Below are positions 3,616 through 33,247 of a DNA stretch of 64,000 bases, one piece after another. Under the pieces are notes generated by a model that was not told where the DNA came from, did no database searches, and saw only the letters and a program-made list of their open reading frames with translations. The stretch lies in assembly GCA_963764715.1 (NCBI GenBank), contig CAVXTP010000021.1, positions 1 to 64,000 of the forward strand, in the 5' to 3' direction. The first letter of the stretch is position 1, and the number at the start of each line of letters is the position of its first letter. Made by a program: the position numbers and the translations under genes. The stretch comes from an uncultured Acidobacteriota bacterium (GTDB lineage: Bacteria > Acidobacteriota > Thermoanaerobaculia > UBA5066 > Gp7-AA6).

Positions 3616-3619
3616 GGGA

Positions 3620-3897: not shown

Positions 3898-3996
3898 CGG
3901 GAGTGGCGGTATCCCTAATCGAAAGAAAGGCTTAGAAACGGACGATTTCCGCGGAACGGCTTTACGAAAGGGGCCTCTGACCCGATAATGCCTGCA

Positions 3997-5211: not shown

Positions 5212-5251
5212 GGTCTCGCCGGCGGACTCCGTCCTCCCACGGCACCCCCCG

Positions 5252-7405: not shown

Positions 7406-7467
7406 GAACCGCCGCGATCACCGGATCGGCGACTCCGGAGCAGGGGAGGGGCTTGTCCCCTCCCTCT

Positions 7468-10124: not shown

Positions 10125-11161
10125 CGCGGACTCCCGGACTTCATGACCCGATTCTTCCAGACCGCGTCGACGATGTCGCGCCTGGCCCGGCGCCAGCCTC
10201 CGAAGTCGGCGATGCGGAACGGATCCTGGATCACGCCGAACTCGGCGTGGCCGGCGTTGAGCTCGTCGTCGACGCTGCGAAAGCCGTAGCGCACGAAGAT
10301 GCGCTGGGCCTTCTCCGTCCACAGGAAGCGCGCGAAGGCATCGACGAGCGGCCGGGCGCGGGCCGGCACGTTGCGCTCGACGACGACGAGGGTGTGCTCC
10401 GACAGGATCGTGCGCGCAGGGTAGACGACGTCGGCGGCGAGCCGCCCGCGCCCCCGGTCGAAGATCGCCTCCTGCTCGTAGGTGATGAGCGCGTCGCCGA
10501 ACCCCTGCGAGAACTGGGTGCGCGCGGCGCGGGCCGAGGAGGCCTGGGCGACGACGTTCTTCCAGATGCCGGCGAGCATCGCCTCGCCCGCGCCCGGCCG
10601 GTCCGGCTCGGCCCGGGCGCCGGCACCGTACTCGGCGACGATCGCCCAGTTCGCGCCGCCCGAGGTCATCGGGTCCGGGTGCACGATGCGCGCGCGGCCG
10701 GAGGCGAGGTCGCCGAAGTCCCGGATGCCGAGGGGATTGCCGGGGCGCACGAGGACGACGAACGGCGTGAGGTTGACGACGCCTTCGTGGGGCAGGCGTT
10801 TCCAGCTTCCCGCGGACACGACGCCGGCGTCGGCCAGCCGTTCGGCGTCGCTCTCGAGAGACAGGAGGACGAGTTGCGCCGGAACGCCCAGGATGACCTG
10901 GTTCGTGACCGTGCCCGAGCCGCCGAACGACGAGATGAACTCGACGTCGCCGTGGCCGGCGTCCATCCACTCCTTCCGGAAGGCCGGGAAGATGCCGTCG
11001 TTCATCGCGTCGGCGAGGATGCTGAAGCCGTAGAAGACGATCGTCGGCGGGGTCGCCTCCGCGCGCGAAAAGGGCAGCCACGGCCACAGGGCCCAGACGA
11101 GGAGGGCCGCGAGAAAGACGAAGGGCGCCACGTCGCGCCGGCGCGGCGAAGGGGATCTCAT
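10121..11161 (-). CDS. Sulfate/thiosulfate ABC substrate-binding protein (Sbp/CysP family)
   Basis: SFGGSG, VRPGNPLGIRDFGDL, PDPMTSGGANW, GDALITYE. Confidence 0.9.
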   Translation of the reverse strand: MRSPSPRRRDVAPFVFLAALLVWALWPWLPFSRAEATPPTIVFYGFSILADAMNDGIFPAFRKEWMDAGHGDVEFISSFGGSGTVTNQVILGVPAQLVLLSLESDAERLADAGVVSAGSWKRLPHEGVVNLTPFVVLVRPGNPLGIRDFGDLASGRARIVHPDPMTSGGANWAIVAEYGAGARAEPDRPGAGEAMLAGIWKNVVAQASSARAARTQFSQGFGDALITYEQEAIFDRGRGRLAADVVYPARTILSEHTLVVVERNVPARARPLVDAFARFLWTEKAQRIFVRYGFRSVDDELNAGHAEFGVIQDPFRIADFGGWRRARRDIVDAVWKNRVMKSGSPR

Positions 11162-12033: not shown

Positions 12034-13968
12034 GTGGCCGCGGAATACAATCGTCCGCATCGGAGGGTCAACCCCACGGTGGTACAGCCCGGCACGCTCC
12101 TCGAGGGAAAGTACGAAATCCTCGACAAGATCCGCGAGGGCGGCATGGGGTCCATCTACCGCGTGCGGCACCGCCTCCTCGAGGAAGTCCGGGTCGTCAA
12201 GGTGATGAAGCCGAGCGCCGGGGCCGACGCGGACCTGCGGCGGCGTTTCGTCGAGGAGGCGCGCACCGCGACGCGGCTCAAGCATCCCAACATCTGCACG
12301 ATTTACGATTTCGCGATCGACGACTCGGGTCTGGCGTACCTCGTCATGGAGTACATCGATGGTCCCAGCGTCGCCGACCTCCTCCGGCTCCAGGGACGGC
12401 CGGCCCTGCCCCTGGCGCTCGAGATCGCGCACCAGAGCCTGCTGGCCCTCGGATTCCTTCACCGCAAGGGAATCGTGCACCGCGACGTTGCGCCCGACAA
12501 CATCATGCTCACGCGCGACGAGCAGGGGCTGCCGCTCGTCAAGCTGATCGACCTGGGAATCGCCAAGGTCGCGGAGGGGCCGATCGAGGCGACCGCGACG
12601 GGCGTCTTCCTCGGAAAGCTCAAGTACGCCTCCCCGGAACAGTACGGCGCGCTGCCCAAGGGACAGCGCCTCGACGGGCGAAGCGACCTCTACGGACTCG
12701 GCATCGTTCTCTACGAGATCCTGACCGGGGTGCTGCCGTTCGAGGGCGACACGGTCGTCGAGCTCCTGCGCGCCCACGTCTTCGCGCCCCCGCGGCCGTT
12801 CTCGCAGTCCGACCCGGAGGGCCGGGTTCCCGCGGAGCTCCGCGGGGCGATCCTCAAGGCGCTGCAGAAGCGCCGGGAGGACCGCTACGCGACGGCCGAG
12901 GATTTCGGCCGCGAGATCCAGACGATCCGGGAGCGCCTCGTCCGCCCCGAGGACCTCGAGGCGACGCGGGCGGCCGTCGCAAAGCTCCGGCCGAGCCGGG
13001 AGATCCATGTGCTGTCGGCGACGCCGAGCGCTCAAAGCCTCCTCGATCGCCAGTTCGGCGTCTCCACGACTCCCACCCCCGCCCGCTCGACCGACAACGA
13101 TCTGACTGCGGCCGCTCCGGCGTCCGCCCCATGGCCGGGCCGCGAGGCCGACGTGCCGACCGTGCCGACCGAGCCCGGGCGGGTGCGCCGCCGGCCGGCG
13201 TGGCTCCTGCCCGCCGTTCTGCTGGTCGCGGCGGTGATCGCCGCCATCGCCGTGCTGTCGCGGTCGAAACGCGCCGAGGCGCCGCCCGTCCAGACCGCCG
13301 CCGCGCTCGCGACGCCGGCCGCCGTTCCAACGCTGCCCGAGCGGCCGACGGCCGAACCGTCCCCTCTCCCGACGGCCGAGCCGACGGCTGTGCCGCCGAC
13401 CCCTCCGCCGACCGCCGTCCCGACGAGCGGCGCACCTGCCCGATCGCGGGCGATCGTCGCGCACCCGACCGCTCCGGCGTCGCGGCCGGCCGCGGTGCCG
13501 TCCCCCGGTCTTCCCGCGTCGGTCCCGCCGCAGGCTCCGACGTCCGCGGCCGAAATCGTCCGCCTGCCGTCGCCCGTCCCCGCGGTCCCGACCGAGTCAC
13601 AGCGGGCCGCGGTCGCGGCGCCCTCGCCCTCCGCCCGGCCCGCCCCGACGGACTCGGACCGCCTGCGCGAGGCGGTCCGCCTCTACGAGACGGCGCAGAA
13701 CACGCTCAATCCGGATCTCTACGTTCGCGTCTTCCCGGGCGTCGACCGGTCGCGGGTTCAGGAGGCCTTCGGCAACTTCCGTTCGCAGACGGTCGAGTTC
13801 GAGATCCGGAAGATCGAGATCGATCCGCGCGGCCAGTCGGCGGTCGTCTCCGGGTTCGAGTCGCGCCTGGCCGTTCCCAAGGCGGGCAACGAGCAGCGCG
13901 TGAACTCGGACCGCGTCCTGCACTTCGAGAAGCGCGGCGAGACCTGGGTCATCACGTCCGTCCGCTGA
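12034..13968 (+). CDS. Membrane Ser/Thr protein kinase with Pro-rich linker and small extracytoplasmic domain
   Basis: GGMGSIY, VVK, HRDVAPDN, DLG, YASPEQ, SDLYGLG, one TM helix. Confidence 0.93.
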   Translation: MAAEYNRPHRRVNPTVVQPGTLLEGKYEILDKIREGGMGSIYRVRHRLLEEVRVVKVMKPSAGADADLRRRFVEEARTATRLKHPNICTIYDFAIDDSGLAYLVMEYIDGPSVADLLRLQGRPALPLALEIAHQSLLALGFLHRKGIVHRDVAPDNIMLTRDEQGLPLVKLIDLGIAKVAEGPIEATATGVFLGKLKYASPEQYGALPKGQRLDGRSDLYGLGIVLYEILTGVLPFEGDTVVELLRAHVFAPPRPFSQSDPEGRVPAELRGAILKALQKRREDRYATAEDFGREIQTIRERLVRPEDLEATRAAVAKLRPSREIHVLSATPSAQSLLDRQFGVSTTPTPARSTDNDLTAAAPASAPWPGREADVPTVPTEPGRVRRRPAWLLPAVLLVAAVIAAIAVLSRSKRAEAPPVQTAAALATPAAVPTLPERPTAEPSPLPTAEPTAVPPTPPPTAVPTSGAPARSRAIVAHPTAPASRPAAVPSPGLPASVPPQAPTSAAEIVRLPSPVPAVPTESQRAAVAAPSPSARPAPTDSDRLREAVRLYETAQNTLNPDLYVRVFPGVDRSRVQEAFGNFRSQTVEFEIRKIEIDPRGQSAVVSGFESRLAVPKAGNEQRVNSDRVLHFEKRGETWVITSVR

Positions 13969-13989
13969 CGTCCCGAGACCGAGAACGCC

Positions 13990-15325
13990 CTAGAAGCTGT
14001 AGTCGATCGCGACGAGCGGCGTGAACCCGTCGAGCAGGCCCTGGCTGTTGAGCGGGAAGAGCCCGTTGAGCGTCAGGAGGAAGTTGCCGAACGGATTGAT
14101 CTTGACGCCGACGGAGCCGAGGAGCTGGTTGATGTCGCCCGTCGAGGTCACGAGCCGCGGCAGCACCGCCGAGACGATGGTGGGCGGGGCGGTCGGGATC
14201 CGGGTTGGTGTTCGCCTGGAATTGCGTGTTCTCGACGTGGATGCTCTGCGTGTCGAGGAACGTGCGGCCGATCACGTCGACCGCGAGCGTGAACCGCGGA
14301 CCGATCGCCCAGTCGAAACCGCCCGTGTAGTTGAACTCGTCGGCGACCTGGGGATCGCCCGAGGACTCGATCGACCAGGTGTAGCCGACGTTCAGGTGCG
14401 GCGAGAAGGAGCCGAGGTGCGCGGAGCCGACGATGAACGGCTTGATCTGCGTGACGCCGGTGCCGAGCAGGTCCCGCTCGTCGCCGGTCGGAAGGCGGGC
14501 ATCGACCGCGAGGGCGACTCCGGCCTTCGGGCTCGAGACGAAGCGGTACTTCGCGCGCAGGACCACGTCGCCCAGGCCCGAGGCGCTGCCGCTCTGCCGG
14601 AACGTCTCCGTGCTCTCACCGTTCTGGAAGCGGTGGATGGTCGGCGCCGTCGGCCCGGTCGCGAGGCGATCGATCGCGGCGTCCGTCTGGGCGTCGATGT
14701 CCACGCTCACGATGGGGATCGCGAAGCCGACGTCGAGGTTGTCGAGGATGCCGTAGTCGAAGACGAGCGCCGCGATGTCGGTCTTGATTTTCACGCTCAA
14801 GGCCGCGGTGATCACGTCGCCCTCGACGAAGGTCTCGAGGTTCGAGCCGTCGTGGTTGACGTCCTGGTGCGTGAAAACGAGCCGCACGTCGCCGTCCGGC
14901 AGGGACAGGCCATTGATCTCGTCGAAGGTGAAGTGGCTGTAGTTGAGGCCGAGGTTGAACCGTCCCTTGCCGATCGTGTCGGCGCGCTCGGCGTAGATGG
15001 GGCCGAAGCTTTCGGTCGCGCGCGTCAACACGCCGAGCGCCGGGTCGAACTGGTAAACGAAGCCGCCGGACGAGGACGCGAGCGGGAAGGACGAGAGTTG
15101 TGTCGCGATCTGCGAGCTGAACTCCTGGAGCGCCAGGAACTGGGGCGACTCGTCGCCGATGAAGTGAGTCTCGTGGCTCGGGAAACCCTCGGGCGGCGGC
15201 GCCAGCGTGATTCCCTGGCGGAGGAAGTCCGTGAGGAGATCGCGCAGGTGGAAGCTCTGCGCGGAGAGCGGCGATGCGACGGCGGCGAACAGAAGGGCGG
15301 CAGCGGAGAGACGGGTGAAACGCAT
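13990..15325 (-). CDS. Putative outer-membrane beta-barrel/transporter protein with a frameshift near 14190
   Basis: Signal peptide MRFTRLSAAALLF, GLGDVVLRAKY and RLPTGDE motifs. Another frame continues ...GVKINPFGNFLLTLNGLFPL...PLVAIDYSF*, ending in Phe as barrels typically do. Confidence 0.75.
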
Positions 15326-15433
15326 CGGCTTCCCTCCCGAGAATGGCGTGAGCGAAAGACTATGGACGTCCGGGCGCGCGGTCAAGGCGCGATTTTGCGG
15401 ATTCCCCTTTCGCGAACGGGAGACAATGGCGGC

Positions 15434-15877
15434 ATGAGAAACGCTGGTCGAATCGCCGCCCTCGTCCTGGTCGCCGCCTTCCTCGGCTGCGCGAAGCCGG
15501 CCGACCCGGTGCAGGCCACGATCGACGCGGTCGTGAAGGCCGCCAACGCCCGCGACGCGGACGCGCTGATACAGCGGGTGGCTCCCGACTTCGAGGCGGG
15601 CGACGGGACCGGCCGGAACGAAATCGAGGCGAGACTCAAGGGCTACTTCCAGGCCTACGAGATCCTGCACGTGCAGGTCTCGAACGTCCAGATCGAGCGG
15701 AGCGAGGCCGCGGCGCGGGTCCGCCTGCGGGCGGAGATGAACGGCCAGCCCCGCTCGATCGGCGGCCTCGGGGGCCTCGTGCCCTCCGCAGCGAAGTACG
15801 ACTTCGACCTGCGGCTCGTCCGCGAGGGGAAGGAGTGGAAGCTCGCCTTCGCCGGCTGGCAGCCCGTCGCGGGCTGA
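15434..15877 (+). CDS. NTF2/SnoaL-like fold lipoprotein
   Basis: Lipobox FLGC; AANARDADAL...APDF...LVREGKEWKL. Confidence 0.7.
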   Translation: MRNAGRIAALVLVAAFLGCAKPADPVQATIDAVVKAANARDADALIQRVAPDFEAGDGTGRNEIEARLKGYFQAYEILHVQVSNVQIERSEAAARVRLRAEMNGQPRSIGGLGGLVPSAAKYDFDLRLVREGKEWKLAFAGWQPVAG

Positions 15878-15891
15878 TTCGGCGGGCCGGT

Positions 15892-15920
15892 TTGACTCCC
15901 CGGCGGAATGTCCTTATCCT
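15892..15920 (+). promoter_or_regulatory. sigma70 promoter of tRNA-Asn
   Basis: TTGACT-N17-TATCCT, 16 nt upstream of the tRNA. Confidence 0.7.
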
Positions 15921-15936
15921 TCCCGGTCCGCTCTGC

Positions 15937-16011
15937 TCCTCAGTAGCTCAATGGCAGAGCATCCGGCTGTTAACCGGAGGGTTGTAGGTTCAAATCCTAC
16001 CTGAGGAGCCA
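15937..16011 (+). tRNA. tRNA-Asn (GTT)
   Basis: Acceptor stem TCCTCAG/CTGAGGA, D-arm, anticodon arm TCCGG-CTGTTAA-CCGGA, T-loop GTTCAAAT, encoded CCA. Confidence 0.98.
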
Positions 16012-16066
16012 TTCTCCCCGCACGCTCTTCTGCGCGATGCCGGTATAAAATTCGACCAAAGATCGG

Positions 16067-18724
16067 ATGACGCTTCTGTCGGGAACACGTCTCGGCACCT
16101 ACGAGATCCTCGCGCCCCTCGGAGCGGGAGGTATGGGCGAGGTCTACCGGGCACACGACCCGAAGTTGAAGCGCGACGTTGCGGTCAAGGTCCTGCCTCA
16201 GACGGTTGCCGCGGATCCGGACGCGCTGGGGCGGTTCGAGAGGGAGGCCCTCGCGGTTGCGGCGCTCTCGCATCCGAACATCCTCGCGATCTTCGATTTC
16301 GGGATGCATGAGGGGACGGCCTACGCCGTCATGGAGCTTCTGGAAGGCGAGACGCTTCGCGGAAAGCTCGACACCGGTCCGATTGCGCAGAAGCAAGCTG
16401 TGGATTACGCGCTCCAAATCGCCAGGGGTCTTTCCGCCGCGCACGAGAAAGGCATCGTCCACCGGGACCTGAAGCCCGAGAACCTGTTCGTGTCGAAGGA
16501 CGGCCACGTCAAGATCCTGGACTTCGGACTGGCGAAAAAAGTCGAGGCGGTCGCCCCGCAGGAGCAGACGAGCGCACCGACGGGCTCGGGCCACACGGAG
16601 CCCGGGACGGTGATGGGGACGATGGGTTACATGTCGCCCGAGCAGGTGAAAGGGCTCCCCGTGGATCACCGCTCGGACATCTTCTCCTTCGGGGCGATCC
16701 TCTACGAGCTGCTCTCCGGGAAGAAGGCGTTTCGACGGGATACGAACGCCGAGACGATGGCGGCGATCCTGATGCAGGAGCCGGTGGAGCTGGCGCAGTC
16801 GGGGCGGAACATCTCGCCGGCGCTGGACCACATTGTCAAGCACTGTCTGGAGAAGGACAGGGAGAACCGCTTTCAGACGGCGAAGGATGTGGCGTTCAAC
16901 CTCTCGGAGCAGTCGTCGTCGAGCGTGGTGAGCGGCGCGAGCGGCGTGCATGTTGCCGCGCCACCCGCTCGCAAAAGCAGGGTTCTTGTCGCTGCAGCGG
17001 CCATCGTCGTTCTGGCCGCCGCGGGTGTTTTTCTCCTGCGGCGCCCGCACGGGGGCGGGGGCGGGGGCGAGGCCGGGGGCGTCAAGCGCGTGGCCGTGTT
17101 GCCGTTCGAAAACCTCGGTGCTCCCGAGGACGACTACTTCGCCGACGGCGTCGCGGACGAGATACGAGGCAAGCTGACCTCCTTGCCGGGGCTTCAGGTG
17201 ATCGCCCGAGGCAGCTCAACCCCCTACAAGAAAACGGCCAAGACACCGAAGCAGATCGCCGAGGAGTTGAACGTTTCGTACCTCCTCACGGCCACGGTGC
17301 GCTGGGAGAAGAGCCCAGGCGCGAACCGTGTCCACGTGAGTCCAGAGCTCGTGGACGTGACGCGACCGGATGCGCCCACGTCCAAGTGGCAGCGGCCGTT
17401 CGACGCGGCGATTACGGATGTGTTTTCCGTGCAGTCGGAGATCGCGACGAAGGTGGCGCAGGCGCTGGGCGGCGCGCTCGGGGCGGGCGAGGAGAAGCGG
17501 CTCTCGGAGAAGCCCACGCAGAACCTCGCCGCCTACGACGCCTTCCTGAAGGGCGAGGAGATCTCGAATCTCGCATCTGGCGATCCGCCCAGTCTGCGCA
17601 AGGAGATCGGCTTCTACGAGCAGGCCGTGGCGCTGGATCCCGGCTTTGCGCAGGCGTGGGCGGAGCTCTCGGAAGCCAATTCGCTTTTGTACGCCAATAG
17701 CACTCCCATACCCGCGCTGGCGGAACGTGCCCGGCAGGCGGGTGAGAAGGCCGTCGCCCTTGCACCGAACCGCCCGAAGGGGTACTTGGCCCTTGGCAAC
17801 TACGAGCGGTCGGTTTCCCGTGACTACACGCGGGCCCTGGAGCAGTACGAGAAGGGGCTGCGCATTGCCCCCGGCGATGCCTCCGTTCTCAGGGCAACGT
17901 CGCTTGCAGAGCAGGGCCTCGGACGGTGGGATTCATCGGTGGAGCACATCAGGCAGGCGGTGCTCCTCGATCCCCGGTCCGCCAACAGTCTGTCGGTCCT
18001 CGGCGAGGCATTCCTGCGTCTGCGGCGCTATCCCGAGGCGCGGGAGGCCTGCGACCGAGGTCTCGCGCTTGCGCCGGCCAACCCCTATCTCATCGAGCGG
18101 AAAGCCATGACTTACCTCGGCGAAGGAGACCTGACCAGTGCCCGGGCCGTGCTCAAGGCCACTCCCAGGGAGTTCGAGCCGACCGCGCTCGTGGCGTACA
18201 TGGCGAGCTACGAGGATCTCGTCTGGGTCCTCGACGAGGAGCAGAGAGAGCTTCTGCTGCGGCTGACGCCGAGCGCGTTCGACGACGACAGGGGCACCTG
18301 GGCCCTCTGCCTCCTTCAGGCTTATGCCTTGAAGGGCGATGCCGCAAACGTGCACACCTACGCCGAAGAGGCAAGGAAGGCGTTCGAGGAGCAGCTTGGA
18401 GCCGCGCCCAATGATGCGCAGCTCCACGTCGAACTCGGCCTCGCGCTGGCGTACCTCGGTCGGAAGGAGGAAGCGATCCGGGAGGGCGAGCGCGGGGTCG
18501 CGCTCGATCCTGTGACGAAGGACGCTCGGTACGGTCCCTACTACCAGCACCAGCTCGCGCGGATCTACATGCTGGTCGGCGAGCCGGAGAAGGCTCTCGA
18601 CCGGCTCGAGCCGCTGCTGAAGATCCCGTACTTCCTCTCGCCCGGCTGGCTCAAGATCGATCCCAACTTCGACCCGTTGCGCAAGAACCCACGGTTCGAG
18701 AAGGTCGTCGCTGGCGGGAAGTAG
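16067..18724 (+). CDS. Ser/Thr kinase - TM - TolB-N-like domain - TPR repeats
   Basis: GAGGMGEVY, HRDLKPEN, DFG, YMSPEQ, VAVLPFENL..DYFADG, TPRs, C-terminal DPNFDPLRKNPRF. Confidence 0.95.
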   Translation: MTLLSGTRLGTYEILAPLGAGGMGEVYRAHDPKLKRDVAVKVLPQTVAADPDALGRFEREALAVAALSHPNILAIFDFGMHEGTAYAVMELLEGETLRGKLDTGPIAQKQAVDYALQIARGLSAAHEKGIVHRDLKPENLFVSKDGHVKILDFGLAKKVEAVAPQEQTSAPTGSGHTEPGTVMGTMGYMSPEQVKGLPVDHRSDIFSFGAILYELLSGKKAFRRDTNAETMAAILMQEPVELAQSGRNISPALDHIVKHCLEKDRENRFQTAKDVAFNLSEQSSSSVVSGASGVHVAAPPARKSRVLVAAAAIVVLAAAGVFLLRRPHGGGGGGEAGGVKRVAVLPFENLGAPEDDYFADGVADEIRGKLTSLPGLQVIARGSSTPYKKTAKTPKQIAEELNVSYLLTATVRWEKSPGANRVHVSPELVDVTRPDAPTSKWQRPFDAAITDVFSVQSEIATKVAQALGGALGAGEEKRLSEKPTQNLAAYDAFLKGEEISNLASGDPPSLRKEIGFYEQAVALDPGFAQAWAELSEANSLLYANSTPIPALAERARQAGEKAVALAPNRPKGYLALGNYERSVSRDYTRALEQYEKGLRIAPGDASVLRATSLAEQGLGRWDSSVEHIRQAVLLDPRSANSLSVLGEAFLRLRRYPEAREACDRGLALAPANPYLIERKAMTYLGEGDLTSARAVLKATPREFEPTALVAYMASYEDLVWVLDEEQRELLLRLTPSAFDDDRGTWALCLLQAYALKGDAANVHTYAEEARKAFEEQLGAAPNDAQLHVELGLALAYLGRKEEAIREGERGVALDPVTKDARYGPYYQHQLARIYMLVGEPEKALDRLEPLLKIPYFLSPGWLKIDPNFDPLRKNPRFEKVVAGGK

Positions 18725-18731
18725 CCCCACC

Positions 18732-18812
18732 TCAAAGGCTGTCGCGCAGGCGCCCCAATTCTCGCAGCCAGCCCCCGAAAAGGTTCCAACTGGGAACTGT
18801 GTGGGGAGCCAT
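18732..18812. repeat. att-like repeat, copy 1 (arm plus tRNA-Asn 3' core)
   Basis: 36 bp (18763-18798) identical to 22045-22080, then 3 variable nt and TGGGGAGCCA. The antisense strand reads MAPHTVPSWNLFGGWLRELGRLRDSL*. Confidence 0.9.
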
Positions 18813-18865
18813 TACTCCCCGCTCTCATCCTCGGGAGTAACGCGGTTAGAAATTCGCCCAGTCGG

Positions 18866-18992
18866 ATTACGCTTTCAGCCGGCACCCTCCTGGGCCCATG
18901 CGAGATTCTCGCGCCTCTTGGCGCGGTGGGAGGGAGGATGTGTACCGGGCGAAGAATGAGGAGAGGTCCAGGCCGGGGCGATCAAGATCGTG
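18866..18992 (+). pseudogene. 5' relic of a kinase gene related to 16067..18724
   Basis: ATT ACG CTT TCA GCC GGC ACC CTC CTG GGC CCA TGC GAG ATT CTC GCG CCT CTT GGC reads (M)TLSAGTLLGPCEILAPLG, matching MTLLSGTRLGTYEILAPLG. Decayed VYRA and AIKI follow. Confidence 0.85.
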
Positions 18993-19116
18993 CTATCGCG
19001 TATCAACGCCTTCGCTTGAGCCACGGCCCCACCTATTGGTTGTTGGCCGGCAGGTTTTTGGCGAACCTCCGCTTTTCCCGATCATGCAGGAATAGAATCG
19101 CGATGTAGCTTGCCTC

Positions 19117-21831
19117 ATGGTCGGAAAAACCGTCTCGCACTACCGCGTGCTGGAACAGCTGGGCGGCGGGGGCATGGGGGTCGTGTACAAGGCTGAAGAC
19201 GAGAAACTCGGCCGCCTCGTGGCCCTCAAGTTCCTGCCCGAGGAGTTCTCGAAGGATCGGCAGGCGATGGAGCGCATGCGGCGCGAAGCCCGCTCGGCTT
19301 CCACCCTGAACCACCCTCACATCTGCACGATCTATGAGTTCGACGAGCACGAGGGACGGCCCTTCATCGCCATGGAGCTGCTCGAAGGCCAGACGCTGGG
19401 TCACCTTCTCGCCGGCGGGGCGCTCCCGACCGAGCGGCTGCTGGAGCTCGGCGTCCAGATCGCCGACGCCCTGGACGCGGCCCACTCGAAGGGGATTCTC
19501 CACCGCGACATAAAGCCGGCGAACATCTTCGTCACTGACAGGGGCCACGCGAAGATCCTGGACTTCGGACTGGCCAAGCACGTGCCGCGCGGGGAGCGCG
19601 CGCTCGCGGACGCGGCCTCCGCTCTCCCCACCGGTATCGCCGAAGAGCATCTGACGAGCCCCGGCGTCGCCCTCGGCACGGTCGCCTACATGGCTCCGGA
19701 GCAGGCACGCGGGGAGGAGCTCGACGCGCGCGCCGACCTCTTCTCTTTCGGTGCGGTGCTGTACGAGATGGCCACCTCCCGGCAGGCCTTCTCGGGCAAC
19801 ACCGCCGCGGTGATCCACGATGCCATCCTGAATCGCGACCCGGTCCCCCCGACCCGGTGGAACCCGGAGCTTACCGAGGATTTGGAGCGCGTCATCGCCA
19901 AGGCCCTCGAGAAAGACCGGGAGATGCGCTACCAGACGGCGGCGGAGCTGAGGGCTGACTTGAGGCGCATCAAACGCGACTCGGAATCCGCGGCGAGGGC
20001 GGCGATCGCCGGCGCCGAGGTACGCGCAGAAATCCCGGCGCGCCGCCGGTTCTCCCGCGCCGCGATCGCCGCGTCCGTAGCCGCAACACTCGCCCTCCTG
20101 TCGCTCGGCCTCTGGTTCCTCCGCTCACGAACAACCTCGGCGTCGGCGCGTTCCGAATGGACCCAACTGACCCACTTCACCGATGCGGTCACCTCGCCGG
20201 CCCTCTCCCCCGATGGCCGCATGCTCGCTTTCGTCCATGGCCCGGACACGTTCATAGGCCCCGGGGAGATCTACCTGAAGCTCCTGCCCAGCGGAGAGCC
20301 GGTCAAGCTGACAGACGACGGGCTCGAAAAGATGAGCCCAGTCTTTTCTCCCGATGGCTCTCGCATCGCCTACACGGCCACCCCCTGGGACACGTGGATC
20401 GTGCCGGTCCTAGGAGGGAAACCCCATTTTTGGCTGCCGAACGCTTCCGGCCTCACCTGGATTGATGGCGAGCACATCCTCTTTTCCGAGATCACTACGG
20501 GCACCCACATGGCCCTCGTCACGGCGACGGAAAGCCGCGCCGAATCTCGTAACGTTTACGTTCCTCCTCCGCCCTCGGGAATGGTTCACCGCTCCTACCT
20601 CTCGCCCGACCGAAAATGGGTGCTCGCCGTCGAGATGGACGCGACGAGCTGGCTTCCCTGCCGCCTGCTCCCGTTCGACGCGGGCTCCACGGGAAAACCG
20701 GTGGGGCCTCCCGGCGGCAGGTGCACCTTCGCCGCCTGGTCTCCCGACGGGCGCTGGATGTATCTCTCCGTGAATACCGGAGGCGGCTTCCATACCTGGC
20801 GCCAGCGCTTCCCGGACGGCGCGCCCGAACAGGTCACATTCGGGGCGACACAGGAGGAAGGCATCGCCATGGCGCCCGATGGCCGCTCTTTGGTCACCTC
20901 CGTCGGAATTGTCGAGAGCTCGGTCTGGATCCGCGACGAACGCGGTGAGCGGCAGGTGTCCACCGAAGGTTACGCCAGCTTCGGATCAGTCGGGAGTCCT
21001 CGTTCTTACTTCTCGGCCGACGGCAAGAAGGTGTACTACCTGATGCGCCGGGAGTCGGCCCAAGATTTCGACGATGGGGAGCTCTGGGCCGCGGACCTCG
21101 ACTCGGGGCGCACGGAGCGCCTCCTGCCGGGCTTCACGATGGGTTTTTTCGACATCTCGGCGGACGGCAAACGCGTCGCCTTCTCGGCGCACGATCGAGG
21201 TGGCAAGCTGCGCCTCTGGCTCGCCTCTCTCGAGCGCCGCTTTCCTCCACGGCGGATCTCATCCTCTGACGATTTGGGCGAACTCAGACCCGTCTTCGGG
21301 CCCGCCGGCGACTTGTTCTTCCGCGGTGATGACGGCCAGACCGTTCGGCCCTATCGGATGAAGGAGGACGGAAGCGGGCGGCAGAAGGTCGTGCCGGATG
21401 CCGTCGGGCCGCTCTTTAGCGTTTCGCCCGACGGGGAGTGGATCGCGGTGCGTTCTTCGAGCGAGTCGGGCGCAGATTGGGGTGGTGGGCGGCAAGCGCT
21501 CGCTTATCCGGTCCGTGGCGGCCCTCCCGTAAAGATCTGCGAAGGGTGCCGCCAGGTGAAGTGGTCGGCGGATGGGAAGTTCTTTTACTTCTCCTATATC
21601 GGGATGGGCACCTGGACGACGACCGGGAAGACCTTCGCGCTTCCGGTTCGTCCCGGCAGGGCCCTGCCCGACCTGCCGGCCTCCGGCGTGCGCTCGAAAG
21701 CAGAGGCCGCCGCCCTGCCCGGCGTTCGAGTGATCGAGCATGGGAACGTCTCGCCCGGTCGCGATCCCTCGGTCTATGCCTTCACCAATATCAGCGCCCA
21801 CCGCAACCTGTACCGCGTACCGGTGCCTTAA
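19117..21831 (+). CDS. Ser/Thr kinase - TM - TolB/PD40 beta-propeller
   Basis: GGGGMGVVY, HRDIKPAN, DFG, YMAPEQ, repeated SPDG motifs. Confidence 0.95.
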   Translation: MVGKTVSHYRVLEQLGGGGMGVVYKAEDEKLGRLVALKFLPEEFSKDRQAMERMRREARSASTLNHPHICTIYEFDEHEGRPFIAMELLEGQTLGHLLAGGALPTERLLELGVQIADALDAAHSKGILHRDIKPANIFVTDRGHAKILDFGLAKHVPRGERALADAASALPTGIAEEHLTSPGVALGTVAYMAPEQARGEELDARADLFSFGAVLYEMATSRQAFSGNTAAVIHDAILNRDPVPPTRWNPELTEDLERVIAKALEKDREMRYQTAAELRADLRRIKRDSESAARAAIAGAEVRAEIPARRRFSRAAIAASVAATLALLSLGLWFLRSRTTSASARSEWTQLTHFTDAVTSPALSPDGRMLAFVHGPDTFIGPGEIYLKLLPSGEPVKLTDDGLEKMSPVFSPDGSRIAYTATPWDTWIVPVLGGKPHFWLPNASGLTWIDGEHILFSEITTGTHMALVTATESRAESRNVYVPPPPSGMVHRSYLSPDRKWVLAVEMDATSWLPCRLLPFDAGSTGKPVGPPGGRCTFAAWSPDGRWMYLSVNTGGGFHTWRQRFPDGAPEQVTFGATQEEGIAMAPDGRSLVTSVGIVESSVWIRDERGERQVSTEGYASFGSVGSPRSYFSADGKKVYYLMRRESAQDFDDGELWAADLDSGRTERLLPGFTMGFFDISADGKRVAFSAHDRGGKLRLWLASLERRFPPRRISSSDDLGELRPVFGPAGDLFFRGDDGQTVRPYRMKEDGSGRQKVVPDAVGPLFSVSPDGEWIAVRSSSESGADWGGGRQALAYPVRGGPPVKICEGCRQVKWSADGKFFYFSYIGMGTWTTTGKTFALPVRPGRALPDLPASGVRSKAEAAALPGVRVIEHGNVSPGRDPSVYAFTNISAHRNLYRVPVP

Positions 21832-21931
21832 CGCGGCGTGTTCACCGAAGCGGCGATGGGGGGCCGCTCCGATAAACGGGCGGCCTAACATGCGGCGGCG
21901 TCGTCCTCGATCAATTTTCGAGAGACACCAA

Positions 21932-22007
21932 GGCTGGCTCTACCTCCAGCACCAGACCCGGTGCGCAAGAACCCGGGTTCCAGAAGCTCGTCGCGGGCGG
22001 GAGGTAA
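21932..22007 (+). pseudogene. 3' relic of a kinase gene related to 16067..18724
   Basis: GGCTGGCTC...GACCCGGTGCGCAAGAACCCGGGTTCCAGAAGCTCGTCGCGGGCGGGAGGTAA aligns with the last ~80 nt of kinase 1 (GWL...DPLRKNPRFEKVVAGGK*). Confidence 0.85.
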
Positions 22008-22013
22008 CCCGGC

Positions 22014-22094
22014 TTACGGAGCGGCGCGAAGCCCCACAAACTCCCGCAGCCAGCCCCCGAAAAGGTTCCAACTGGGAACTAGATGGGGAGCCAA
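22014..22094. repeat. att-like repeat, copy 2
   Basis: Same arm and TGGGGAGCCA core. The antisense strand reads (L/M)APHLVPSWNLFGGWLREFVGLRAAP*. Confidence 0.9.
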
Positions 22095-22383
22095 TTCCCC
22101 CCGACCCCACCGCGCGCGGAGTCCCGGGTATGTCGCGGTCCAACGAGTACGAGGCCATGACCTGCCGGAGCGGCGGGAGCCGTTGACCCGCGGGCCGGAG
22201 TCGGTCCTTCGGGTGCGGGTCATGTGGCAGTGACCGTCGTCCTGTGATTCAGTCTCATCAGGCTGCAGTTTCGGAACTGGCCGATCGTGTGGCACTTGGA
22301 GGCTCCCATGCGTCTCGGATCGGGAGCGCGCTCAACCTCGGAGGCCGCATGACCCTCGCGGAACTTGTCTGAACCCGCGCCAG

Positions 22384-25300
22384 GTGATCGGCCGTCTGCT
22401 CAGCCGCAGGGCGCTTCTCGCCGTCGGCGCCGTCCTCGCCGTGTGGGCCGTGGCCGGGTTCCTCGTGCTCCCTCACTTCCTCCGCCCGGTCGTCGAACGG
22501 AAGATCGCGGAACGACTTCACCGTCCCGCGACGCTGCGCCGACTCTCGCTGAACCCATTTGCGATGTCCGTCACGCTCGAAGGTCTCGACGTGAAGAACA
22601 AAGGAGGGGAAGGTCCCTTCTTCTCGGTCGAGCGCCTCTACGCGAACCTCGAGGCGGCCTCGATCTTTCGCGGCGGTCCCGTAGTCCGAGCGCTCACGCT
22701 GACGAAGCCGTCCGTCACGATCGTGCGGAACGAGGACAGGACGTACAGCGTCCAGGACCTTCTCGACGAAGCGTTGAAACCGAAACCCGTTCAGAGGCCG
22801 GAGAAAGCGGAGACGCCGCTGCGCTTCTCGGTGAACAACATCCGCGTCGAAGACGGGAGCGTGGACTTCGACGACCGCCCGGAGCGGACGAAACACACCG
22901 TCCGGGACCTGAAGATCGGCATCCCGTTCCTCTCGAACATCCCTTCGAAGGTCGAGATTACGACCCAGCCCGTTTTCGAAGCCAGAGTGAACGGCACGCC
23001 CTTCTCGCTGCACGGAACGACCAGGCCCTTCAGCGAGACGCGCGAGACAACCGTGGAGATCGATCTCTCGGACATGGACCTTCCACATTACTTCGCGTAT
23101 GCGCCGCCCTCGATCCCCTGGAAGCTCGCCTCCGGCCGGCTGGACGCGAAGATCCGGGTCGTCTTCACGCAGCCGCCGCGCGGCAGTCCCGCTCTCGTCC
23201 TTTCGGGCACGGCGGCCTTGCGGAGCTTCGCCGCGAAGAGCGGCGACAGGCCGCTACTCGCCTGGGACCGTTTCGAGGCCGTCGTCAACTCGGTGAACGT
23301 TTTCCAACGCAAGGTTCGGATCAGCAGCCTGAAGGCGGTCGCACCCGAGGTCTGGATTCGGCGCGAGGCGAGAGGCGAACACCGGCTCGCGGCGGCCTTC
23401 ATCGCACCGGCCACCGGGGGCGCGAAGAAGGGGGACGCGGTAGCCCCGAAGGGTCCCGCGGCCGGTCCCGTGCTCCTCGTCGAGATCGCGGAGATAGAAG
23501 TCGCTCGCGGCAAGATCCACTACGACGACACCGCCTTCGCCCGGCCGTTCCATGCTCTCATCGACGGTGTCGAGGCTTCCGTCAGGGGATTCTCGACGGC
23601 TCCGGGCCAGGTGGCCTCGCTCGAGGCGTCGGCGAAGACCGACGCCGGCGAGACCCTGAAGGATGCGGGCACGGTTTCGATGGAGCCGTTCGTTCTCGAA
23701 GGCACGTTCGAGATCGCCGGCCTTCCTCTGAAGCGCTACGCCCCGTTCTACGAGAGCCTCGTGACCTTCGACGTCGACGACGGCACTCTGGACGTGGGGA
23801 CGAGATACCGTTTCTCCACGGGGCCCGACGCCAACACGACCCTGTCGGCGCTCTCGGCTACCCTCCGATCCCCTCGGCTGAGGAGGAAAGACGCGAAGGA
23901 GCCCTTCTTCAAGGCGCCCTTCGTGAAGATGACGGGGTCCTCCCTCGACCTCGCAAAGCACGACCTCGCGCTCGGAGACATCTCGAGCGACGGAGGTCTC
24001 CTCGCGGTCGTGAGGGGAAAGGACGGCAACGCCGACCTCGCCGAGCTTATGGCCCGTCCGTCTCCCGATGCCCGTCCGGTGCCGCCGTCGGCGCCGTGGA
24101 ACGTAGCCCTGGGAAGGCTCGCGCTCGACGGATACACGGTCCGCATCGAGGATCACGCAACAGGTCGGCTCGCGCGCTACGCGCTGACGAAGACGGGCCT
24201 TTCCCTCGAGAACTTCTCGACGGCACCCGATGCGAAGGGGGCGCTGTCGGTGAGATTTGGCATCAACGGCCGGGGAACGGCTTCGGCGAAGGGCCCCGTT
24301 GGAATCCACCCGACCTACGCCGAGCTCGACGCCGAGGTCAAGAGCCTCGACCTGGTTCCCCTCGAGCCTTACGTTCTGTCGAACTTCAAGCTGTCGCTCG
24401 CCTCGGCAAAGTTGTCCGCGCGGGGCGTCCTGTCGCTTCGCGAGGGCGCGGAGGGCAAGGCGAGCGTCGGCTTCGCCGGAAGGGCGGCCGTCCAGAATCT
24501 GCTGGCCCTGGACGAGTCCACGAAGCTGGACTTCTTCAAGTGGGACGCCTTCGATCTCCAGGGGATGAAGGCGGGCTACAACCCGACCTTTCTTCAGGCG
24601 GCAAAGCTCGCCATCACGGGCCTGGCGTGCGACGTCGTGATCGGGGCGGACGGCACGGTGAACCTCCGCAGGGTCGTGGGCAAGCCCGCGCCCCCCGAGG
24701 GGGAAGAGGAGGAGGCGGCCGAGCCGACGGCGGCCGCGGGAGCTCCACCGCCGGCGGCCGCACCGGCGCCCCCCGCTCCGGAGACCAACGAAAAGGTGCC
24801 GATCCGCATCGACACGCTCACCCTCGAGGGCGGCCGGATCGGCCTCGCCGACCACTTCATCAAGCCGAACTACGCCGCGACGCTCATGGATCTCCGAGGC
24901 AGCGTGACCGGCCTCTCCACCGAGGAGGGCACGGTCGCGCAGCTCGACCTGAGCGGCCGTCTCGCTAGGAACTCGCCGCTTCGGATCGCCGGCCGGGTCA
25001 ACCCTCTTGCGGCGACGGCCTTCGCCGACGTCACGGCGAGCTTTCGAGACATCGACCTGCCGCCGTTCACCCCGTACTCCGGCAAGTACGCCGGATACGC
25101 GATCGCTCGCGGCACGCTCACGATGGAGCTCAAGTACAAGCTCGAGAACCGCAAGCTCACGGCCGAGAACAGGCTCCTCGTCGACCAGTTCGAGTTCGGG
25201 GAAAAGGTCGAAAGCAAGGACGCGACGAAGCTGCCGGTCAGGCTCGCCGTCTCGCTCCTGAGGGACAAGGACGGCCTGATCGATCTCGACCTGCCCATCG

Positions 25301-25995
25301 AGGGATCGCTGGACGACCCGAAGTTCCGCCTCGGAAAGCTCATCTGGCACGTCATCGGAAACCTGATCGGAAAGGCGGCCACCGCGCCCTTCGCGCTCCT
25401 CGGAAAGGCCCTGGGCGGCGGCAAAGGGGAGGAGTTCTCGTCCGTCGACTTCGCCGCCGGACACGACGCGCTCGACGACGCCGCCCGGAAGAAACTCGAC
25501 GCGCTCGCAAAGGCCTTGAACGACCGGCCCGCCCTGAAGTTGAAGGCGACCGGCCGCTTTTCCGGCGAAGAGGACCTGGAAGGGCTGCGGCGCCTGCGTC
25601 TCGAGCGGAAGGTCAAGGCGCAAAAGCTGGCCGACCTCGTCGACCGGGGCGAGGCGCCGGCCAGCGTGGACGCCGTCGTCATCGACGAGAAGGAATACCC
25701 GACGTACCTGAAAAAGGCCTACAAGAAGGAAAAGTTCAAGAAGCCCGGCGGCTTCCTGGGAATCGCGAAGGACATTCCGGCGCCCGAGATGGAGAGCCTC
25801 ATGCTCGCCAATCTGACTCCGACGACGGACGACCTGCGGCAGCTCGCCCTGGCCCGGGCGAATGCCGTGAAGGATTACCTCCTGGGGCCCGGAAAGGTCG
25901 AAGCGGCGCGCGTCTTCGTGATCGAGCCGGGAAGCAAGCCCTCCACCCCCGAAGGAAAGGCGAGCGCCAGCCGCGTCGACTTCGCGCTCGAATAG
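22384..25995 (+). CDS. DUF748 (AsmA-like) protein with C-terminal OmpA-like region
   Basis: N-terminal TM, LSLNPF, repeated beta-rich units, DLPPFTPYSGKYAGY, LDLPIEGSLDDPKF, LALARANAVKDYL. Confidence 0.9.
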   Translation: MIGRLLSRRALLAVGAVLAVWAVAGFLVLPHFLRPVVERKIAERLHRPATLRRLSLNPFAMSVTLEGLDVKNKGGEGPFFSVERLYANLEAASIFRGGPVVRALTLTKPSVTIVRNEDRTYSVQDLLDEALKPKPVQRPEKAETPLRFSVNNIRVEDGSVDFDDRPERTKHTVRDLKIGIPFLSNIPSKVEITTQPVFEARVNGTPFSLHGTTRPFSETRETTVEIDLSDMDLPHYFAYAPPSIPWKLASGRLDAKIRVVFTQPPRGSPALVLSGTAALRSFAAKSGDRPLLAWDRFEAVVNSVNVFQRKVRISSLKAVAPEVWIRREARGEHRLAAAFIAPATGGAKKGDAVAPKGPAAGPVLLVEIAEIEVARGKIHYDDTAFARPFHALIDGVEASVRGFSTAPGQVASLEASAKTDAGETLKDAGTVSMEPFVLEGTFEIAGLPLKRYAPFYESLVTFDVDDGTLDVGTRYRFSTGPDANTTLSALSATLRSPRLRRKDAKEPFFKAPFVKMTGSSLDLAKHDLALGDISSDGGLLAVVRGKDGNADLAELMARPSPDARPVPPSAPWNVALGRLALDGYTVRIEDHATGRLARYALTKTGLSLENFSTAPDAKGALSVRFGINGRGTASAKGPVGIHPTYAELDAEVKSLDLVPLEPYVLSNFKLSLASAKLSARGVLSLREGAEGKASVGFAGRAAVQNLLALDESTKLDFFKWDAFDLQGMKAGYNPTFLQAAKLAITGLACDVVIGADGTVNLRRVVGKPAPPEGEEEEAAEPTAAAGAPPPAAAPAPPAPETNEKVPIRIDTLTLEGGRIGLADHFIKPNYAATLMDLRGSVTGLSTEEGTVAQLDLSGRLARNSPLRIAGRVNPLAATAFADVTASFRDIDLPPFTPYSGKYAGYAIARGTLTMELKYKLENRKLTAENRLLVDQFEFGEKVESKDATKLPVRLAVSLLRDKDGLIDLDLPIEGSLDDPKFRLGKLIWHVIGNLIGKAATAPFALLGKALGGGKGEEFSSVDFAAGHDALDDAARKKLDALAKALNDRPALKLKATGRFSGEEDLEGLRRLRLERKVKAQKLADLVDRGEAPASVDAVVIDEKEYPTYLKKAYKKEKFKKPGGFLGIAKDIPAPEMESLMLANLTPTTDDLRQLALARANAVKDYLLGPGKVEAARVFVIEPGSKPSTPEGKASASRVDFALE

Positions 25996-26000
25996 CTCCG

Positions 26001-26028
26001 AGGTTCCAGAATCTCAATGGGGAGCCAA
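26001..26028. repeat. att-like repeat, copy 3 (decayed)
   Basis: AGGTTCCA-GAATCTCA-ATGGGGAGCCAAT has the same flanking blocks as copies 1 and 2 with 4 nt fewer between them, 5 nt after the DUF748 stop. Confidence 0.65.
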
Positions 26029-26054
26029 TGCTTCTCCGGCATTCGCTCCGCCTT

Positions 26055-26861
26055 CTAGGCCACCGCCACCTGAGTCATCTGCTTCAGCATCTCCTCGAGG
26101 CCGGCCTGGTCCGGTCCGACGAAGGGCCGCGCCGCGGGGGCGGCCGAGAGCGACTCCAGCACCCGGTCGGTCATGCGTCCCGGAGCCGCCGGCAGATGGC
26201 TGCTCAGGATCATCTTCGGGTCCATCCGTCGAATTCCGTCGAGCTCCTTCGCGAGCGCCCCCCGATCCACCTTGTGCAGCCACGGCGCGTCGAGCGTCGC
26301 CCAGAAGAGCTGCCCCTCCCGGAGATCCTCGTCCGAGAGCTCGGCGGCGTTCTGCGGGGGCGGCGAGGAGAAGAGCGCTCCGAAGCAGTCGGAGGTGAAG
26401 AGGACTCCCGACTTTTCGTCGTAGAAGCCCGTCGTGGAGGGGTTGTCGTACGCGGGAGGCTTGACCGCGGTGAACGTTCGGTCGCCCACGGTGATCTTCT
26501 GACCCGGATTGACGAGATAGACCCGGTCCAGCGGCAGCGGGGCGGACAGGCTCATGATGCCGACGCCGAGAAACGTCGTGATCACGCGGATCCGGGGGTT
26601 TTCGGCGAGCAGGGCGTGCAGGCTGCCGATGTGGTCGAGGTCGGTATGGGTGAGCCAGATCCACCGGAGGTCGGCCGGATCGATGACCGACCGCAGCGCC
26701 CTCATGAAGTCCGGGCTCTCCACCACGGTCCCCGTGTCGACGAGGACGGGCTCGGAGCCCTTGATGACGAACGCATTGATCGGCACCTGGCCGTAGCCCG
26801 GGATCGGGAAGTTCGACGTGAGGACCTCGATGTCCGACGCGGCCTCGTAGGAATGGACCAT
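26055..26861 (-). CDS. MBL-fold metallo-hydrolase (flavodiiron N-domain-like)
   Basis: VLVDTG, THTDLDHIG, LFTSDCFG, SSH. Confidence 0.88.
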   Translation of the reverse strand: MVHSYEAASDIEVLTSNFPIPGYGQVPINAFVIKGSEPVLVDTGTVVESPDFMRALRSVIDPADLRWIWLTHTDLDHIGSLHALLAENPRIRVITTFLGVGIMSLSAPLPLDRVYLVNPGQKITVGDRTFTAVKPPAYDNPSTTGFYDEKSGVLFTSDCFGALFSSPPPQNAAELSDEDLREGQLFWATLDAPWLHKVDRGALAKELDGIRRMDPKMILSSHLPAAPGRMTDRVLESLSAAPAARPFVGPDQAGLEEMLKQMTQVAVA

Positions 26862-33130: not shown

Positions 33131-33247
33131 TTTCCGCGATGCCCGGGGTGCCGGACCCCGCTCTCACGGTCTTTCCTGAAGGGCGTGCGACGCCCGGAGG
33201 CCGAGCTTCCGCCGAACACCCGGGTATAAAGTTCCCGTCAGACTCGA

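Follow-up and report, generated by a model that had tools for sequence, protein, structure and literature searches.

Downstream of a tRNA-Asn(GTT) gene in a 64,000-nt stretch of DNA (the window) from an uncultured soil Acidobacteriota bacterium, three consecutive units of 2800, 3282 and 3934 nt were found, each terminating in GGGGAGCCA, a copy of the 3' end of that tRNA. With a probability of about three in four, the locus is a stack of non-autonomous cassettes, added one behind another through site-specific recombination at the 3' end of this one tRNA-Asn. An earlier note, made from the window alone, had proposed minimal cassettes serially integrated by a recombinase that would act in trans; its observation was partly confirmed, the repeat being wider than reported. 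The proposal of serially integrated, non-autonomous cassettes was supported, and it survived a search of relatives for the three findings named beforehand as fatal to it, namely fixed synteny at the locus, scattering of the site away from the tRNA, and the lack of any recombinase-bearing element using the site.

The window lies on contig C21 of the source genome (G000; 4.36 Mb, 26 contigs). The genomes compared are denoted by G numbers and fetched loci by L numbers. All compared genomes are metagenome-assembled genomes (MAGs) with a completeness of 55–98%, in which mobile elements are often left unbinned. The genus sample comprised 44 genomes (species), 20 of them of high quality, the family sample 105, and the sample for a class-wide integrase search 401.

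Anatomy of the array

The anchor of the array is a 75-nt tRNA-Asn(GTT) gene at 15937–16011 on the plus strand, which was the sole tRNA of the window detected by ARAGORN and matched the Rfam tRNA model with 73 bits. Its terminal bases, GAGGAGCCA at 16003–16011, would act as an attachment (att) core of the attB type, and cassette-specific sequence begins immediately 3' of CCA in all genomes examined. A predicted sigma-70-like promoter of the tRNA (TTGACT-17-TATCCT, 15892–15920, plus strand) was recognised by motif match and conservation; it is the sole promoter-like match within 15800–26200, and all 10 genomes that were aligned keep it 5' of the tRNA even though their upstream genes differ.

Cassette 1 (16012–18811) consists of a 55-nt leader, a Ser/Thr kinase-TPR gene (16067–18724) and a 3' site at about 18750–18811, in which a hairpin arm (18763–18798) precedes the core (18803–18811). 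Cassette 2 (18812–22093) carries a kinase-PD40 propeller gene (19117–21831) and a 3' site at about 22032–22093 with its core at 22085–22093, while cassette 3 (22094–26027) has a leader, a DUF748/AsmA-like gene (22384–25995) and a decayed 3' site at 26002–26027, which keeps GGTTCCA and TGGGGAGCCAAT. All three are on the plus strand, and the Pfam assignments agree with the gene contents given in the earlier note (kinase-TPR, kinase-propeller and DUF748). Most of what that note had read from the letters was found as described: GGAGCCA recurs at 18805–18811, 22087–22093 and 26021–26027, the 36-nt arm is identical at 18763–18798 and 22045–22080, the third copy is decayed, and the unit sizes given as about 2.8, 3.3 and 3.9 kb match the measured lengths. 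A stop codon 5–7 nt from the arm, claimed for every unit, is present in unit 3 only (TAG at 25993–25995, GGTTCC from 26002); for the stop or relic stop of the other two units, the distance to the arm is 38 nt (unit 1) and 36 nt (unit 2).

The arm is embedded in longer repeats. Alignment by blastn of 18671–18821 with 21955–22103 gave 79.5% identity over 151 nt, spanning the kinase C-terminus, arm and core, and that of 16002–16152 with 18802–18950 gave 68.6% over 153 nt, spanning the tRNA end, the leader and a relic of the kinase N-terminus. Relics of a kinase-TPR gene thus delimited by blastn in cassette 2 lie at 18866–18951 (N-terminal) and 21955–22008 (C-terminal). As the repeats include both kinase ends, unit 2 is the shell of an older kinase-TPR unit remodelled around another kinase. 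The 16-nt core of the hairpin was found at only the two arm positions in the whole G000 genome when up to 2 mismatches were allowed, with 0 matches for the reversed control. For the full 36-nt arm, two matches were never reached in 100 shuffles.

The comparison between genomes drew on 76 sites whose flanks were complete and on 58 cassettes with a boundary at either end. Anchored on the core, conservation among the 76 sites is at least 90% from −36 to 0 (CGAAAAGGTTCCAACTGGGAACTATGTGGGGAGCCA), remains high back to about −62, and is 50–60% at +1. Since conservation falls right after CCA, the conserved element forms the 3' part of each cassette, and its last base coincides with that of the tRNA. 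The site measures about 60 nt and contains an imperfect hairpin (GGTTCC-AACTG-GGAACT), 8 more bases and the core GGAGCCA. Hybrid cores occur within arrays, for example a hairpin followed by TACCTGAGGAGCCA in G023, and on contig C7 of G058 a 29-nt partial copy of the tRNA-Asn 3' end precedes a cassette that in G019 has a hairpin site before it. The distal sites tend to be the most altered, as seen for site 3 of G000, the last sites of G019, and a truncated relic in G019 after the cassette called X below.

The cassettes have a median size of 2.8 kb (range 0.42–10.7 kb, n = 58). Counting open reading frames (ORFs) of at least 100 aa, 37 of the 58 contain one, 17 more than one and 4 none, and a kinase domain is encoded in 24; the one-gene kinase cassette described in the earlier note is therefore the mode and not a rule. 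Orientation of the site is constant, while 59 ORFs run with the array and 31 opposite to it. Where a kinase is the cargo, its start codon lies 53–57 nt past the core in 16 of 40 measurable cases. Besides kinases, Pfam disclosed P-type ATPases, a GNAT acetyltransferase, BNR/sortilin-like, MOSC, radical SAM and DUF4197 proteins, an F420-type oxidoreductase, an epimerase-like protein, an M61 peptidase and a Vgb-lyase-like protein; the largest cargo block (10.7 kb) has FGE-sulfatase-like, cytochrome c and cytochrome b genes.

This composition bears on a first alternative, in which kinase genes were duplicated in tandem and diverged, and the site is a regulatory or RNA-processing element, such as a tRNA-like 3' end punctuating a transcript from the tRNA promoter. 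Both ends of a kinase-TPR gene are indeed present in unit 2, the kinase family is expanded in tandem elsewhere in the genome, the tRNA promoter has no other promoter-like match beside it in the region, and the site can be folded and ends in NCCA. Such an origin is nevertheless improbable in view of the highly diverse cargo (P-type ATPases, GNAT, radical SAM, cytochromes, epimerase and others), the reversal of about one third of the ORFs under a fixed site orientation, the kinase paralogues outside the array that lack the site, and cassette X, which is far closer between species than a housekeeping locus. Nor did RNA analysis favour it: in an Rfam scan of 15500–26500 (E ≤ 1) only the tRNA and one sub-threshold antisense match were obtained, and RNAalifold, applied to 77 distinct sites, returned one 6-pair helix without covariation, all pairs of which are nearly invariant, so that covariation can neither support nor reject the structure. 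No terminators were located at the array sites of the window. An additional RNA role of the site may exist alongside recombination.

The family of Ser/Thr kinases is greatly expanded in G000, with members in the window at 12034–13968 and about 33223–33949, and others at C21:180000–230000, C1:38000–55000 and C23:21000–40000. Long tandem runs elsewhere on the contig of the window have a spacing of about 2.6 kb. All these kinase copies lack the array site.

Distribution and turnover among relatives

When a 151-nt stretch spanning site 1 was used as query, 19 of 24 other genus genomes gave matches, with many clustered copies per genome, and 0 of 16 genomes did so in two further families of the order. 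The site was then counted as a pattern with up to 2 mismatches in the genus and up to 3 in the family, with the reversed pattern as control. Of the 44 genus genomes 22 have it, as do 12 of the 20 high-quality ones, the control giving 0 throughout; it reaches 11 copies in G058 and 10 in G019. Within the family, 28 of 105 genomes have the site, among them one genome from genus g134, with 5 sites, and two from genus g12. Each mapped array whose proximal end is in view is headed by tRNA-Asn(GTT), as established for G019, G023, G006, G011, G021, G016, G013, G018, G002, G041 and contig C12 of G058.

Further arrays were carried by 14 metagenome contigs, the tRNA being on 3 of these. Scanning of a contig collection with a 16-mer gave a full site in at least 13 of the 146 loci listed, most of the 16-mer matches being due to chance; among the full-site loci listed, the 10 checked for taxonomy are Acidobacteriota or Thermoanaerobaculia MAGs. 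In viral contigs the 16-mer was found in 26 loci and the full site in 0. No account of arrays of this kind in Thermoanaerobaculia or Acidobacteriota was found in the main texts of open-access papers and preprints.

Two of the findings named beforehand as fatal are addressed by these data. Arrays behind tRNA-Asn vary in content, length and order among relatives, and the arm, which is confined to the array in G000, forms clusters of one orientation behind the tRNA in relatives, with two single copies seen off the arrays. These lone sites, in L023 (G021, contig C5, about 10645) and L024 (G016, contig C13, about 9793), have no tRNA within 10 kb and are both inside kinase-gene clusters. A second type of boundary was observed in G017 and G015, where GAGGAGCCA is repeated 3.8 kb (L189, 2826–6600) and 1.2 kb (L191, 2776–3997) past the tRNA, preceded by GATTC(GA)TC and not by the hairpin arm; in G015 the repeat coincides with the final codons of a FAD-monooxygenase-like gene. 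G017 was considered as an example of an empty site, which was ruled out by the DUF748 gene between its tRNA and the second GAGGAGCCA.

The turnover of cassettes was seen by comparing G000 with the sister species G023, taking the xerD locus as a housekeeping yardstick for species divergence (88.5% identity in this pair). From the upstream flank to the end of cassette 1, tRNA included, the two genomes align with 86.6% identity; the alignment breaks off 11 nt past the first core, and homology returns at 90% just past the last core, in the flank with a metallo-beta-lactamase-fold gene. That gene (26055–26861, minus strand, Pfam) is outside the array and conserved with G023, and the terminal core of G000 with its following flank is orthologous to the last site of G023. 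Between the break and the return of homology there are 2 cassettes in G000 and 6 unrelated ones in G023.

Spread between species is exemplified by cassette X, a 1.2-kb unit with an epimerase-like gene that is present in five species (G002, G021, G006, G023 and G019). Its copies are 98.1% identical between G002 and G021 and 90–97% identical among G006, G023 and G019, whereas the xerD loci of the five are 74–77% identical. Its rank varies: it adjoins the tRNA in G002 and G006, and takes the second place in G021, the fourth in G023 and the last (rank 11) in G019. In both contexts it starts right after CCA, reading ...CCTACCTGAGGAGCCA/CTAGTCTC... behind the tRNA and ...ACTATGTGGGGAGCCA/CTACTCTC... 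behind an arm, where the slash marks the boundary, and the homology between G002 and G021 ends exactly at the right-hand core. Cassette X stands before a kinase cassette (K896) in G023 and after it in G019; a single ancestral order with losses cannot account for this reversal. The first cassette, and with it the bases after CCA, varies among genomes.

The kinase-PD40 cargo of cassette 2 is 89% identical to a G018 gene that does not adjoin a site, over a span (19116–21835) that exceeds the ORF by 1 nt ahead of the ATG and 4 nt behind the stop. The DUF748 cargo of cassette 3 is 90% identical in G017, G006 and G046, inverted in G017 and G006, and the gene is found in 4 of the 44 genus genomes; here the homology (22370–25996) extends from the second base of the ATG to 1 nt past the stop. 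In G000 this ATG has become CTG, which leaves a GTG at 22384 as the next start. In both genes, then, the homology is confined to the ORF. A second process may swap cargo inside the shells with ORF-precise ends.

In the preferred reading, a cassette comprises a short leader (often about 55 nt to the start codon), usually one gene, often for a Ser/Thr kinase, and the 3' element of about 60 nt, and cassettes are exchanged in or at the core. Whatever follows CCA is accordingly part of the next cassette, and that to the left is the tRNA or the arm of the previous cassette. New units would integrate serially at the tRNA-Asn end, sharing their att arms with integrase-bearing relatives. The sequences compared show the anatomy, the arrays across the genus, turnover at the core, the spread of a cassette between species and the physical contact of integrase remnants with the core; catalysis by a tyrosine integrase, insertion mainly beside the tRNA, and activity at present are what we infer from them.

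Candidate recombinases

The earlier note had found no integrase or transposase in the window, which holds for the families PF00589, PF00239, PF07508, PF01797, PF00665 and PF01609; for PF00589, the absence of a match extends to contig C21. None of 192 ORFs of arrays and flanks matched the integrases of G000, and a Pfam scan of 58 ORFs returned no recombinase or transposase family. Elsewhere, G000 has two Xer-like genes, two island integrases beside tRNA-Leu and tRNA-Pro, a frameshifted IntI-like gene and five Y1_Tnp (HUH) matches, none of the latter on the contig of the window, and its matches to the serine recombinase families PF00239 and PF07508 and to the DDE/rve families PF00665 and PF01609 number 0. 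A hairpin-guided mechanism of the IS200/IS605 or IS91 kind was set aside, as the arrays are tied to one tRNA and not to a 4–5-nt target. PF00589 was also searched in 31 genus genomes, and no match lay inside the arrays of the 11 array-bearing genomes whose coordinates were compared.

In five further genomes searched for PF00589, one sub-threshold match was obtained, 2 kb from the sites of G058. The match covers the C-terminal 88 residues of a tyrosine integrase (HDLRHTF...MGWS...RYGH) that is encoded antisense to the array; although it scores only 22.8–25.4 bits, HDLRH...RYGH is present. The stub runs into a shortened site (...GTAGCCAGCTGAAACTATGTGGGGAGCCA), and its 2.4-kb unit ends in a hairpin site. 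Homologous stubs lie 77 nt (G057) and 42 nt (G052) past the anchor tRNA. The class-wide search gave matches in 17 of 401 genomes, a count that includes G063, on which nothing rests. Two of the genes are intact and adjoin tRNA-Asn(GTT) in the same convergent layout: one of 388 aa, 30 nt from the tRNA, in G370 (genus g12 of the same family), and one of 378 aa, 48 nt from it, in G294 (another family). Their PF00589 scores are 72.7 and 81.3 bits, respectively, and both match phrog_1 (E ≤ 1e-49). More stubs adjoin tRNA-Asn in G305, G249 and G317.

Since stubs and intact genes alike adjoin tRNA-Asn, this integrase family is likely to target the 3' end of the anchor type of tRNA-Asn, and the G058 stub indicates that at least one of its members was bounded by the array's own sites. 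The enzyme sought is most probably a tyrosine integrase of this family, which adjoins the same tRNA-Asn in related genera. As the cassettes lack a recombinase and the genus keeps only stubs, the enzyme would have to act in trans from an autonomous relative, which may be present only transiently. The third of the findings named beforehand, the lack of a recombinase-bearing user of the site, thus has a divided answer: stubs abut the core or the tRNA in G058, G057 and G052 and intact relatives stand beside tRNA-Asn in two genera, but no intact integrase was found with a hairpin site. The remnants in L219, L225, L226, L229, L231 and L233, from three genera, keep about the last 60–100 residues, starting from about residue 290–310 of 388. 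This uniform extent suggests either a recurrent break point or a piece retained as part of the att arm.

Several observations weigh against site-specific accretion by such an enzyme. With the full-length integrase as query, only three stubs (about residues 287–386) were found in the 44 genus genomes, none in G000. G424, which has 5 sites, has no integrase of the family, and in no genome examined do an intact integrase and hairpin sites occur together; G370, with the intact gene, has no hairpin site, its contig ending at the gene. Circle, deletion or empty-site joints were absent from four low-depth runs, which are too thin to weigh either way, the best containing 0.30 and 0.22 of the sampled words, with short, low-depth assembled contigs; two read contigs bridge the junction of cassettes 1 and 2 as assembled, and the joints listed are artefacts of kinase paralogues. 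The identity between tRNA and site is short (7 nt exact, 12 of 15 over a wider stretch). The cargo of cassettes 2 and 3 was exchanged with ORF-precise ends inside older shells, of which integration at the core gives no account. Finally, the 3' element of cassette X is a mosaic, the first 1096 nt being 98.8% and the last 80 nt 88.8% identical between G002 and G021; therefore homologous exchange or gene conversion between sites also occurs, and it could explain part of the shuffling.

These points lead to a second alternative, in which no dedicated recombinase exists and the junctions serve as portable homology for shuffling of the RecA type after DNA uptake; the "minimal mobile elements" of Neisseria are a model for such exchange. 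The junctions measure about 180 nt and are 80–95% alike within and between genomes, and the mosaic cassette X and the lack of an intact cognate integrase in the 44 genus genomes would be expected. However, the joints at the tRNA share only 7–15 nt in many genomes with varied first cassettes, the drop in conservation falls exactly at CCA, integrase stubs abut the core, and in G058 (contig C7) a partial tRNA copy takes the place of the arm. Shuffling by homology alone was accordingly considered unlikely, if still worth weighing, and accretion by recombination at the tRNA end is preferred.

Comparison with known systems and surroundings of the locus

Tandem islands at tRNA genes are well known, usually as a few large decaying elements, each of which formerly had its own integrase. 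The high-pathogenicity island of Yersinia has a 17-bp asn-tRNA repeat. The sublocations used within tRNA genes were reportedly treated by Williams in 2002.

Among the closest counterparts are the cis-mobilizable elements (CIMEs) of the ICESt1 type, which are outlined as keeping att sites without integration and transfer genes, being lined up one after another at a target gene's 3' end, and sharing the att site with integrase-bearing relatives, so that mobilisation by an outside integrase is expected (PMC5704250). Measured against that outline, the present units likewise have att copies at every boundary (GGAGCCA, with 12 of 15 nt shared with the tRNA end, and the partial tRNA copy on contig C7 of G058), no integrase was found inside them (0 of 192 ORFs; 0 of 58 by Pfam), and no conjugation genes were seen. 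CIMEs are described there as one or two decayed integrative and conjugative or mobilizable elements (ICEs/IMEs) beside a functional one (PMC5704250), whereas up to 11 minimal units are present here, mostly of one gene (median 2.8 kb), with a conserved 60-nt arm, a high genus-wide turnover and no functional partner found in the same genomes. As to an origin by decay of ICEs or IMEs, integrase stubs are present in 3 genomes, and most cassettes instead hold relics of kinase genes.

Tycheposons of Prochlorococcus, in the account given in bioRxiv 10.1101/2020.12.28.424599, target tRNA genes, successive integrations push older elements inward, and partial tRNAs and fragmented integrases remain. The tRNA target, the partial tRNA copies and the integrase fragments left behind are shared with the arrays; by that account, however, tycheposons carry an integrase by definition and number 1–2 per genome on average, whereas the present units lack integrase and replication genes and have a long arm that is not derived from the tRNA. 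The ssrA-specific genomic islands of Dehalococcoides, as presented in PMC3146451, have the end of a small RNA gene as their specific integration site, a trait in common with the arrays. Serial integration at the tRNA-Asn end fits the logic of CIMEs and tycheposons so described; the arrays differ in degree and form, by their length, the minimal units, the non-tRNA arm, the lack of any helper found in the same genomes, and frequent genus-wide exchange. Each of the Dehalococcoides islands is said to carry its own recombinase.

Recombinase-less elements of other kinds, namely IMEX (integrative mobile elements exploiting Xer) and pdif modules, are integrated or moved by the XerCD of the host. G000 has a single, canonical dif, GCGTCCGATAA-GATATA-TTATGTAAAAT (GCGTCCGATAAGATATATTATGTAAAAT), at C22:348060–348087, 36 kb from an XerD-like gene. 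A Xer reading was not supported, as this dif is unlike the array site, the anchor is a tRNA, and the boundaries have no dif-like 11-6-11 layout.

With chromosomal integrons the arrays share directly oriented, mostly single-gene cassettes, a structured 3' element, a fixed start beside a promoter, cassettes shared and reordered between species, and a recombinase outside the cassettes. They differ in lacking an adjacent intI and attI as well as attC architecture, in being anchored at a tRNA 3' end, in a candidate enzyme that would be an ordinary tyrosine integrase of the phage or island type, and in their larger cassettes with about one third of the ORFs reversed. Sites of attC have the consensus RYYYAAC...GTTRRRY with R''/L''...L'/R' boxes. 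A canonical integron is in fact present in G000 at C17:590–10630 (L179), with an IntI-like gene bearing several frameshifts (9404–10630, minus strand) and at least 11 attC sites (GCCTAAC...GTTAGGC) at 590–8905, on the 3' side of intI.

A classical integron array devoid of its integrase (cluster of attC sites lacking integron-integrases, CALIN) and acted on by IntI would also give directly oriented sites between mostly single genes, and G000 has the IntI-like gene, as many members of the genus have an integrase of the IntI class of about 400 aa. This explanation was found hardly credible: the attC sites of the integron, which is on another contig, are unlike the array site, the intI of G000 is frameshifted, the array site has no R''/R' boxes and its boundary is CCA/ and not G/TT, and the presence of the IntI class does not track the arrays. 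The term "integron-like" used in the earlier note can accordingly be kept as an analogy and not as a statement of kinship, with no IntI or attC at the array and the separate integron in the genome.

A stronger form of the analogy was entertained only tentatively. The array might be a working functional analogue of an integron, with the tRNA 3' end as capture site, possibly the tRNA promoter as array promoter, the 60-nt 3' element, and a transient tyrosine integrase of the phage or island type. If true, sensor kinases and other accessory genes would be pooled across the genus. Apart from this, a genus of uncultured soil Acidobacteriota keeps up to 11 minimal, mostly one-gene cassettes without integrase and with a structured site, which are exchanged between species whose identity at a housekeeping locus is only about 75%. 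Such integron-like population genetics through a classical tRNA att site suggests that gene-capture platforms arose more than once, and the arrays offer a tractable system for the persistence of non-autonomous cassettes under a scarce helper integrase. How cassettes acquire new cargo, a question also posed for integrons, is a matter on which the kinase relics and ORF-precise swaps bear. As the cargo is rich in Ser/Thr sensor kinases, the signalling repertoire may be a traded commodity.

Further observations concern the surroundings of the locus. Upstream of the anchor, the minus-strand ORF 13952–15670 was rejected as the neighbouring gene; it is a shadow ORF, third-position GC favouring the gene at 14021–15877 on the plus strand. 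The two other tRNA-Asn(GTT) genes of G000 (C5:24828–24903 and C25:12998–13073) are identical to each other, 76 nt long and clearly unlike the anchor, from which their acceptor stem differs; arrays are anchored by the 75-nt type alone. Together with its promoter, the anchor tRNA lies behind a SnoaL-like gene in G000, G023, G011, G013 and G002, and behind msrA-msrB in G019, G006, G021 and G016; the differing upstream neighbours imply that the tRNA and its array changed chromosomal place within the genus. In G000 the msrB region (C17:108829–109919) is followed by repeats resembling repetitive extragenic palindromic (REP) elements and by no tRNA; in the window, the gene before the anchor tRNA is that at 14021–15877. 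REP-like palindromes (GTAGGGGCGGGGCTCGTCCCCGCCCTC) also flank a Y1_Tnp gene (C17:16536–16853); they lie at C17:16365–17181 and C17:109950–110010 and resemble a unit of REP and REP-associated tyrosine transposase (REP/RAYT).

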